Source: Elusimicrobia bacterium RIFOXYA12_FULL_57_11
Lineage (GTDB): Bacteria; Elusimicrobiota; Elusimicrobia; Elusimicrobiales; UBA9959
DNA: 34,546 nt
Assembly: GCA_001800275.1 (NCBI GenBank)
Contig: MGVB01000117.1
Span: 1-34,546 of the forward strand
Reading direction: 5' to 3'
Position 1 is the first letter of the stretch. Every line of letters starts with the position of its first letter. The notes beneath the pieces were generated by a model. It had not been told where the DNA came from, ran no database searches, and was given only the letters and a program-made list of their open reading frames with translations. The translations under genes were made by a program, and so were the position numbers. Of the stretch, positions 32,587 to 32,715 are shown piece after piece.

Positions 32587-32715
32587 ATGGCTCCTAATAA
32601 CGGAAAAAACAAGAAGGCACAGGCAAAAAACACAAAGAAGGCGTACTTAAAGCCTTCCCTGACAAAGCACGGTTCGCTGAAATCGCAAACCGCCTCTTTC
32701 CGGACTTTCTATTAA
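32587..32715 (+). CDS. Putative RiPP precursor peptide, 42 aa, lasso-type leader
   Basis: MAPNNGKNKKAQAKNTKKAYLKPSLTKHGSLKSQTASFRTFY*; exact YxxPxLxxxGxxxxxT; GGTGAG upstream; own promoter candidate. Confidence 0.75.
   Translation: MAPNNGKNKKAQAKNTKKAYLKPSLTKHGSLKSQTASFRTFY

Follow-up and report, generated by a model that had tools for sequence, protein, structure and literature searches.

Near the right end of a contig of Elusimicrobia bacterium RIFOXYA12_FULL_57_11, between two glycosyltransferase genes, there is an ORF of only 42 amino acids whose product resembles the leader of a lasso peptide followed by a very short tail. The question raised by this locus is whether such an ORF is a gene and, if so, what could be made from so small a core. 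The original prediction, which was based on the window (the whole stretch of 34,546 nucleotides analyzed here, contig C117), had taken it for a RiPP-like precursor of an RRE-dependent kind. Our analysis indicates that the product of the ORF, a leader plus a core of about seven residues, is probably the precursor of a modified peptide that is linear, depends on an RRE and arises from a pathway similar to that of the Linear Polyphosphorylated Peptides (LPP).

A short conserved gene between two glycosyltransferases

The ORF had been placed between a GT9 gene and a GT4 gene that starts 62 nt after it, and both the coordinates and the Pfam matches bear this out. The features of this end of the window are the following.

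31558..32457, plus strand: GT9-family glycosyltransferase (PF01075, 28.4 bits vs cut-off 22)
32511..32539, plus strand: promoter-like site ATAACA-17-TACAAT with TG (extended -10)
32574..32579, plus strand: Shine-Dalgarno-like GGTGAG, 7 nt 5' of the ATG
32587..32715, plus strand: type-1 precursor ORF, 42 aa, MAPNNGKNKKAQAKNTKKAYLKPSLTKHGSLKSQTASFRTFY; ATG at 32587, stop at 32713-32715 (counted in)
32644..32673, plus strand: predicted RRE-binding leader motif Y20-L-K-P-S-L-T-K-H-G29
32692..32712, plus strand: predicted core A36-S-F-R-T-F-Y42, with the cut placed after T35 by analogy with T-1 of LppA
32778..33872, plus strand: GT4 glycosyltransferase (PF00534, 109 bits), GTG start 62 nt past the peptide stop
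33856..34546, minus strand: C-terminal 229 aa of a large SipW-type signal peptidase/beta-helix protein (PF13229, PF05048), cut by the contig end

The candidate promoter and ribosome binding site that had been proposed for the ORF were both found, at 32511-32539 and 32574-32579 respectively. Promoter-like sites appeared at 3 per 600 nt, vs 0.4 in shuffled sequences. The extended -10 box is kept at two orthologous loci, and the AATGTGnTAnAATA block is invariant in a DNA alignment of three genomes. This alignment has a characteristic shape: the TGnTAnAAT box is kept on the 5' side, the spacer is variable, and the similarity stops directly after the stop codon. At the place equivalent to GGTGAG, two relatives of the same genus (G035 and G018) have purine-rich AGGCG-type elements. 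An alternative in-frame GTG at 32575 would give a peptide of 46 aa; the orthologues begin at the ATG instead. The GC content falls to about 0.43 around the ORF. A scan of positions 32000-33200 against Rfam gave no match, there was no sign of an intrinsic terminator, and the RNA fold of the interval between the ORF and GT4 was not significant (z = +1.72).

Over the last 24 codons, the differences among the three genomes at codon positions 1, 2 and 3 were 4/1/12, 4/2/11 and 4/1/8. They are located mostly on third positions, indicating purifying selection on the peptide. A six-frame scan of the 2.3-Mb genome gave only five cases of a relaxed leader motif near the end of an ORF, the real peptides accounting for two of them. 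The eight public sequencing runs listed were all of groundwater DNA, four of them being possible sources of this assembly, and no RNA run was among them. As far as sequence comparison goes, the 42-aa ORF is confirmed as a real conserved gene, more than a chance occurrence.

A peptide family with a constant leader and short variable cores

We have searched the genomes of relatives in six frames and found orthologues of this peptide (type 1) in four other Elusimicrobia genomes. Two of them are from the same genus (G035, MAPHNDKNKRPHARKKRAYLKPAVTKHGALNSQIASFRTFY; G018, MALNNDKNRKNRAKPRAQAYVKPAIVKHGSLNSQIASFRTFY), and the others, G040 (...TYRKPALTKHGFLGEQVVSLKAHY) and G150 (...EYQKPKLTKHGSLNTSIASFSYTY), represent two other families of the order, one each, the type-1 orthologues spanning three families in all. 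Residues M1, Y20, K22, P23, K27, H28, G29, L31, S37 and Y42 are invariant in the five orthologues. Position 35 is T/I/I/V/I, i.e., Thr35 is not conserved. Of the lasso-type leader originally proposed, the YxxPxL..HG part is invariant and the Thr at -2 is variable. The search of relatives that had been suggested for the leader recovered the ORF as a conserved one, linked to GT4 in the five genomes.

Beyond the orthologues, the peptide profile was matched by 24 of the order's 227 genomes and, in a sample of 401 from the whole phylum, by 29. The members begin with a basic stretch, share the invariant leader Y-x-K/R-P-x-[LIV]-x-x-H-G and end in cores that are short (4-17 aa) and variable; the Y, P, H and G of the leader are invariant in all 18 members of the family compared. 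Most common is type 2, with the ending ...KYQKPQIKSHGKISEVASAFKP. The genome of the window has itself a type-2 paralogue, MKNPKK...SHGKISEVASAFKP, located on contig C160, where it starts 4 nt inside the stop region of its PqqD/RRE gene and its ORF extends into a FabD-like acyltransferase gene.

The same profile was compared with 1.84 billion representative proteins and gave 22 matches at E<=0.001, of which we inspected 20, leaving out two long proteins (1494 and 382 aa) with several short matching stretches. Seventeen of the 20 were peptides, 34-49 aa long, that have a basic N-terminal part, carry the same leader and differ in their short tails, for example ...VAAMSSYSGK, ...VAVAYR, ...VVTAQPYY and ...GGYDYGTTGY. 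Besides, one match of 130 aa (P0015) is a PqqD-like RRE domain fused to such a peptide. At distant loci of the class, a SpI (signal peptidase), RRE or NTase (nucleotidyltransferase-fold) gene was located at 10 kb or less from the peptide in four out of five. The source records label the peptides of the family 'hypothetical protein' at most. The exact 42-aa peptide of the window is absent from the public protein collection of 1.84 billion representatives, a word-based homologue search with it gave no candidate, and the peptide profile had no match among PDB sequences. These comparisons strongly suggest that the gene is translated and conserved and is part of a family whose leader is constant and whose short cores are hypervariable, a combination that is the signature of RiPP precursors.

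Probable machinery beyond the contig end

The type-1 peptide has GT4 directly downstream in the five genomes (38-59% identity). In G035 and G018 a GT9 orthologue (61-63% identity) is found at the equivalent place, and in G040 and G150 the peptide has no GT9 upstream. As had been noted in the original prediction, no RRE, B2 peptidase, cyclase or radical SAM (rSAM) gene lies inside the window. The suggestion that the machinery could be found beyond its right edge agrees with what we found for the large gene truncated there. The beta-helix fragment of the window shares 52% identity with residues 1004-1223 of a G018 protein of 1229 aa, and residues 13-246 of that same protein match contig C57 (positions 11025-11720) with 50% identity. 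Both matches reach the contig ends, have the right orientation and are the only ones in the genome, which indicates that C117 and C57 probably abut. The basis of this join is one split orthologue, and about 757 residues of the large gene would lie unassembled between the contigs.

On C57 the gene that is divergent from PqqD has a signal-peptidase-like N-terminus and runs off the contig end. After the PqqD gene come those for a 530-aa protein, a 421-aa protein, a GT4, a rSAM/SPASM enzyme, a GT2 and a second rSAM/SPASM enzyme, and farther along the contig there are an ABC-2 permease and a Wzt-like ABC ATPase. The joined order would be GT9 > peptide > GT4 > < SpI/beta-helix, RRE > NTase > GT2-like > GT4 > rSAM > GT2 > rSAM, and the peptide of the window's genome very probably lies about 5 kb from the machinery gene set. 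G040 and G150 show the same convergent arrangement, with the SpI/beta-helix gene pointing towards the peptide and its GT4. In G018 and G035 the peptide and the RRE module are found on the same contig, 62 and 46 kb apart.

RRE proteins and the predicted leader complex

The genome search for RREs and rSAM enzymes that had been proposed gave three PqqD-family proteins, on C57, C160 and C69, and the rSAM/SPASM genes on C57. The C57 RRE matches PF05402 with 67.5 bits. The RREs score best, below cut-off, against lasso B1 models, and the profile scores against individual proteins were 63.3 bits for TbiB1, 46.9 for TfuB1, 43.6 for PbaB1 (9X90) and 28.6 for LppB (9X8Z). Orthologous RREs lie upstream of the NTase gene in the five type-1 genomes.

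Modelling of the peptide with the RRE, also among the original suggestions, gave for the C57 RRE and the type-1 peptide a predicted complex with an ipSAE of 0.65 vs 0.04 for the best control (58 of 80 solved complexes attain this ipSAE mark, as do 2 of 110 mismatched pairs; input alignments were of 5 + 5). The runs share at least 94% of the contacts and the pLDDT of the partner is at least 58. In the model, residues 16-32 of the peptide are located against strand 32-42 and helices of the RRE. This predicted pose is the canonical binding mode of B1 proteins and leaders; given that complexes of this type have been solved (5V1V, 6JX3, 9X8Z, 9X90), the prediction shows likeness and may reflect memorization of these structures by the predictor. 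On the three points where the original prediction laid itself open, the ORF is conserved, the genome does have RREs, and the cores of the homologues are short and without the lasso-type acidic residue.

Candidate partner enzymes

The N-terminal domain of the large protein, compared as a profile with PDB sequences, matched SEC11C (3.5e-8) and SEC11A (6.8e-8). TIGR02228, the model of archaeal-type signal peptidase I, was detected in the five members examined (best 4.7e-11, below cut-off) and SipW in one of the five, and the Ser, His and Asp boxes (GxSM, HRV and TKGDxN...D) are invariant. Judged by these motifs and profiles, an archaeal/ER-type (SEC11/SipW) signal-peptidase domain is present and linked to the peptide class. 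Originally, cleavage had been attributed to a B2 peptidase; however, PF13471 was found in none of six genomes (the window's own, 82% complete, and five peptide-bearing relatives, 83-97% complete), so that this part is unsupported, and the peptidase linked to the peptide is the archaeal/ER-type one.

The stand-alone 530-aa protein has full-length orthologues in G035, G018, G040 and G150 only. It is present in five of five type-1 genomes vs none of the 222 others, which give partial matches inside much larger proteins. It follows the PqqD gene in all five type-1 genomes, and RRE-NTase-GT2-like modules are likewise found in all five. Neither the 530-aa nor the 421-aa protein has a Pfam or NCBIfam match, and their profiles matched no PDB sequence. 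The 530-aa protein has an invariant G55...S66-D67-x-D69, its ESM-Atlas neighbours carry NTP_transf_2, and its AlphaFold model, a mediocre one (pLDDT 63.6), gave ANT(4'), AadA and HalB as top Foldseek results, at non-significant E values of at least 0.034. A nucleotidyltransferase fold for this protein is a lead, not proof, and the 421-aa protein might be, again as a lead, a divergent GT2. With the 530-aa protein as a guide, 11 loci of the named genome collection were inspected and gave no convincing leader-like peptide within 6 kb, which fits with the peptide lying often distal to the module. In type-2 clusters a single polypeptide of 1023-1441 aa contains the SpI domain, the beta-helix and the NTase domain, a fusion that ties these activities to one pathway.

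A P-loop kinase-like protein was found in 25 of the 227 genomes, including all 24 that bear the peptide; the extra one is G014 (84% complete). Its gene is located in the peptide operon of G018 and on the RRE-module contig of G040, and the sole copy in the genome of the window is in a type-2 cluster on C72. TIGR04352 was detected in five of six of these proteins (best 3.8e-7, 29 bits vs cut-off 200), and the comparison with the HprK of PDB gave E values of 0.03-0.07, around the P-loop only. These matches weakly suggest an HprK-like kinase. The modules of G000, G018 and G035 contain two rSAM/SPASM genes and a GT2, and in type-2 clusters a rSAM gene is located directly upstream of the RRE. None of the rSAM proteins matched a peptide-maturase family above cut-off (best 84.9 bits vs 380).

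A different set of genes on C69, a trio coding for HprK-like, PqqD and S24-like proteins, was considered as machinery acting in trans and rejected: its kinase is found in 62 of the 227 genomes and was not found in G035, and its small peptidase has no match to the SpI profile.

Proposed pathway

The chemistry proposed here, including the cleavage site and the modification of the type-1 core, is drawn by analogy with LppA/B/K/S/N. The RRE would bind leader residues ~16-32 by beta-strand addition around Y20-x-x-P23, and the kinase would phosphorylate the invariant Ser37, at position 2 of the core. The SpI domain, with the substrate presented by the RRE, would cut after Thr35 (Ile or Val in the orthologues). 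The core had first been given as SFRTFY; the analogy with LppS would put the cut directly after Thr35 and leave the seven-residue ASFRTFY. The NTase and the glycosyltransferases, including the always adjacent GT4, would add sugars to phosphate or hydroxyl groups, the invariant C-terminal Tyr42 may be a target of the rSAM/SPASM enzymes, and the ABC-2 transporter would export the product.

As for the role, the likeliest guess is a surface-glycan or biofilm-associated one. A more elaborate version, rather unlikely as a whole, is that the cores are ribosomally encoded primers or handles, and not antibiotics, on which the kinase, the NTase and 4-5 glycosyltransferases assemble a phospho-glycan; the signal-peptidase/beta-helix enzyme at the cell surface would then trim it, and a Wzm/Wzt-type ABC-2 system would export it. 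The whole would have arisen in Elusimicrobiota independently of the LPP of Bacillota, by recruitment of a lasso B1-type RRE.

Alternative explanations

The invariant Tyr at the C-terminus of the five type-1 peptides could also point to a different core chemistry, of the mycofactocin or PQQ type, in which a radical-SAM step on this Tyr, followed by a peptidase and a glycosyltransferase, would yield a small glycosylated cofactor-like or signalling molecule instead of a phosphopeptide. A Tyr end recurs in distant members (...AQPYY, ...GTTGY, ...DAYY, ...ARSY, ...AHSY, ...FSALY), and the two rSAM/SPASM genes with a GT2 in three of the modules, together with the rSAM gene upstream of the type-2 RRE, fit in with it. 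We consider it unlikely nonetheless: many members of the family end otherwise (AFKP, IIVRE or HAK), the rSAM proteins reach no maturase family cut-off (best 84.9 bits vs 380), and the parts common to all types are the RRE, SpI, NTase and kinase, not the rSAM. A rSAM step as an added tailoring is compatible with the LPP-like explanation. Much less probable is a genuine lasso precursor, or a truncated lasso pseudogene that has lost its core, and in practice this reading is already refuted. There is a weak leader-only match to NF033528 lasso_cyano (17.4 bits vs cut-off 33), and lasso B1 models and TbiB1 are the best-scoring matches of the RREs; a penultimate Ile has been reported for some lasso leaders (PMC10368454, in the part of the article available). 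Yet PF13471 is missing from the six genomes, and the five full-length Asn-synthase (PF00733) homologues all begin with MCGI and therefore look like true amidotransferases. None of them is on an RRE contig, although the contigs are short and this excludes linkage of a cyclase to the RRE only in part. The type-1 core has 6-7 aa without an acidic residue, the cores of the homologues are all short and have no Asp/Glu at position 7-9, and the short C-terminus is under purifying selection. The early claim that the core could not form a lasso extends therefore to every homologue seen.

The position of the peptide directly upstream of GT4 in the five genomes, with its own conserved promoter-like site, and the distance to the RRE module in G018 and G035 would also be expected if the ORF were not a substrate and acted as a cis-acting upstream ORF or as a small basic regulatory peptide, controlling GT4 or titrating the RRE. 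This is quite improbable, given that what is conserved is the amino-acid sequence, including the C-terminal residues, beyond the mere reading frame, that the family has the conserved-leader and variable-core pattern of RiPP precursors, and that type-2 copies and the RRE-peptide fusion sit inside biosynthetic clusters. Neither is the RNA structure between the ORF and GT4 significant (z = +1.72). Finally, the ORF is short, has a GC of 0.43, and its exact sequence is uncalled in any public collection, which is how a chance ORF in an AT-richer intergenic spacer would look, but with orthologues in three families that show codon-position bias, and with the co-occurrence of the enzyme set, this explanation is scarcely credible.

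Comparison with known systems

Mycofactocin (MftA-F) has a short C-terminal core ending in Tyr, a PqqD-like RRE, a rSAM/SPASM enzyme, a peptidase and a GT2. There is no family-level match to it here: the mycofactocin rSAM model gave 47 bits vs a cut-off of 265, and MftF 38 bits vs 280, on the GT2 of the type-2 cluster. The type of peptidase differs, and a kinase and an NTase are present in our case. Paeninodin and pseudomycoidin have a B1-type RRE with a YxxP leader, and their HPr-kinase homologue acts on the linear precursor; in phosphorylated and glycosylated lasso peptides a nucleotidyltransferase adds hexoses to the phosphate (PMC8498205, as described in the portion available). Unlike them, the present system has no B2, no cyclase and no possible macrolactam. 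Besides, according to the same portion, their kinases target a C-terminal Ser, whereas the type-1 peptide ends in Tyr. According to the accessible part of the RRE-Finder report (PMC7470986), about half of some 8,000 discrete lasso-type RRE matches have no leader peptidase and no cyclase, and rSAM enzymes accompany about 300. The RREs described here fall among this orphan kind, which was left uncharacterised in that part of the report, and a precursor family and a set of partner enzymes are now assigned to them.

The closest parallel is found in the LPP system of Paenibacillus alginolyticus, lppA-K-B-S-D-N, published in May (Popov et al., Nat Commun 2026; PMC13381572). According to the available part of that publication, its components are a SipW-like SpI (LppS), a discrete RRE (LppB), an HprK-like kinase (LppK), an NTP-transferase (LppN) and an MsbA-like pump, and its genes sit in capsular polysaccharide loci. 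The precursor has the motif YxxPxVLxHQxIxFETxxS, is cleaved after T-1 in an RRE-dependent manner and is polyphosphorylated at Ser3, and the system is there said to be restricted to Bacillota (PMC13381572). Like in LPP, we have found a discrete lasso-type RRE, an archaeal/SipW-type SpI as candidate leader peptidase, a candidate HprK-like kinase (by sub-threshold matches) and a putative NTP-transferase-fold protein, with no B2 peptidase or cyclase and in the setting of a glycosyltransferase-rich polysaccharide locus. The type-1 leader has the same spacing from Y(-16) to T(-1). Compared with the LPP motif, four of ten positions are identical (Y-16, P-13, H-8 and T-1) and three are conservative (L-11, L-5 and Q-2), while L-10, Q-7 and F-3 are unmatched.

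There are also clear differences. The invariant Ser just past the cut would be at +2 in type 1 vs +3 in LPP, and the core has about 7 aa in type 1 (4-17 in the family) vs 45 aa. The phylum is Elusimicrobiota and not Bacillota, the SpI is fused to a beta-helix protein of ~1200 aa (and, in type 2, to the NTase as well), an ABC-2 permease with a Wzt-like ATPase takes the place of the MsbA-like exporter, and there are extra rSAM/SPASM enzymes. By profile score the RRE is nearer to TbiB1 (63.3 bits) than to LppB (28.6 bits), and a common origin with the LPP of Bacillota is therefore not established. The matching parts and the leader spacing suggest that the system works like LPP; this is a claim of likeness in the way of working, not of descent from the Bacillota clade. 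With regard to the undescribed class originally proposed, an RRE-dependent precursor is what our data point to, but an analogous class was published in 2026. We found in the literature no description from Elusimicrobia, or from outside Bacillota, of such an ultrashort-core variant, and the supplement of PMC13381572 may list SpI homologues of non-Bacillota.

If confirmed, the SpI/RRE/kinase/NTase pathway of LPP would extend from Bacillota to an uncultivated phylum and would work on cores of only ~5-8 residues. Natural fusions (SpI-beta-helix-NTase and RRE-precursor) tie the components together, and a substrate family would be at hand for some of the many orphan RREs of lasso type. The comparison also sharpens the question of the role of LPP-type products in polysaccharide loci. 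The NTase and glycosyltransferase chemistry of LPP stayed silent in the published heterologous host (PMC13381572); a seven-residue core with a defined leader would provide an easy system to reconstitute both.

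A second precursor and its gene cluster

Besides the type-1 peptide, the 42-aa precursor encoded between the GT9 and GT4 genes of the window, the same genome carries a second, paralogous precursor of type 2, the commonest form of the peptide family. It ends in ...SHGKISEVASAFKP and its gene is located immediately 3' of a PqqD gene. The type-2 cluster is divided in this assembly between two contigs, C160 and C72 (loci L014 and L099).

C160:489-590, minus strand: type-2 precursor
C160 and C72: GT4, ABC-2 exporter, FabD-like acyltransferase, HprK-like kinase and a 1023-aa fusion of SpI (archaeal/SipW-type signal peptidase), beta-helix and NTase (nucleotidyltransferase-fold) domains

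In the relative G021 the same cluster additionally encodes an rSAM protein together with a BioF/Kbl-like 2-amino-3-ketoacid synthase, a gene content that hints at acylation. In the 130-aa P0015, a public representative protein that matches the peptide-family profile, a PqqD-type RRE domain is joined to a family peptide ending in ...HGQLSEVATAFKP. The fusion looks natural, but read-through in the annotation is another possible origin.

A third trio of kinase, PqqD and peptidase genes is found 3' of prepilin-like genes.

C69:3940-5464 (locus L015): HprK-like kinase (269 aa), PqqD (122 aa) and S24-like peptidase (108 aa)

Its kinase is present in 62 of the 227 genomes of the order, a much broader spread than that of the type-1 or type-2 peptide, and no precursor was identified for this trio.

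Neighboring genes and domain fusions

Two multidomain proteins are encoded in or near type-1 modules.

C57:968-3028 (locus L013): ABC-transporter ATPase with a DegT/DnrJ/EryC1-like aminotransferase segment C-terminal to the ABC domain
G018 contig C28 (L096:10561-13290): 910-aa protein with B12-binding, radical SAM and SPASM domains, close to the type-1 module

The ATPase is an unusual fusion, its residues 373-501 matching PF01041 (57.7 bits). The 910-aa protein has a homologue in G035 (74% identical).

Two further ORFs precede the GT9 gene.

Window 29146-31516, 5' of GT9: putative U32-type peptidase-like ORF (615 aa) and YaeQ-like ORF (PF07152, 29.3 bits)

In relatives neither is syntenic with the peptide locus, to which both are probably unrelated. 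The 2.3-Mb genome encodes, on several contigs, five or more full-length Asn-synthase paralogues of the glutamine-dependent kind, none of them linked to an RRE in its assembled contigs; such multiplicity is typical of polysaccharide loci.
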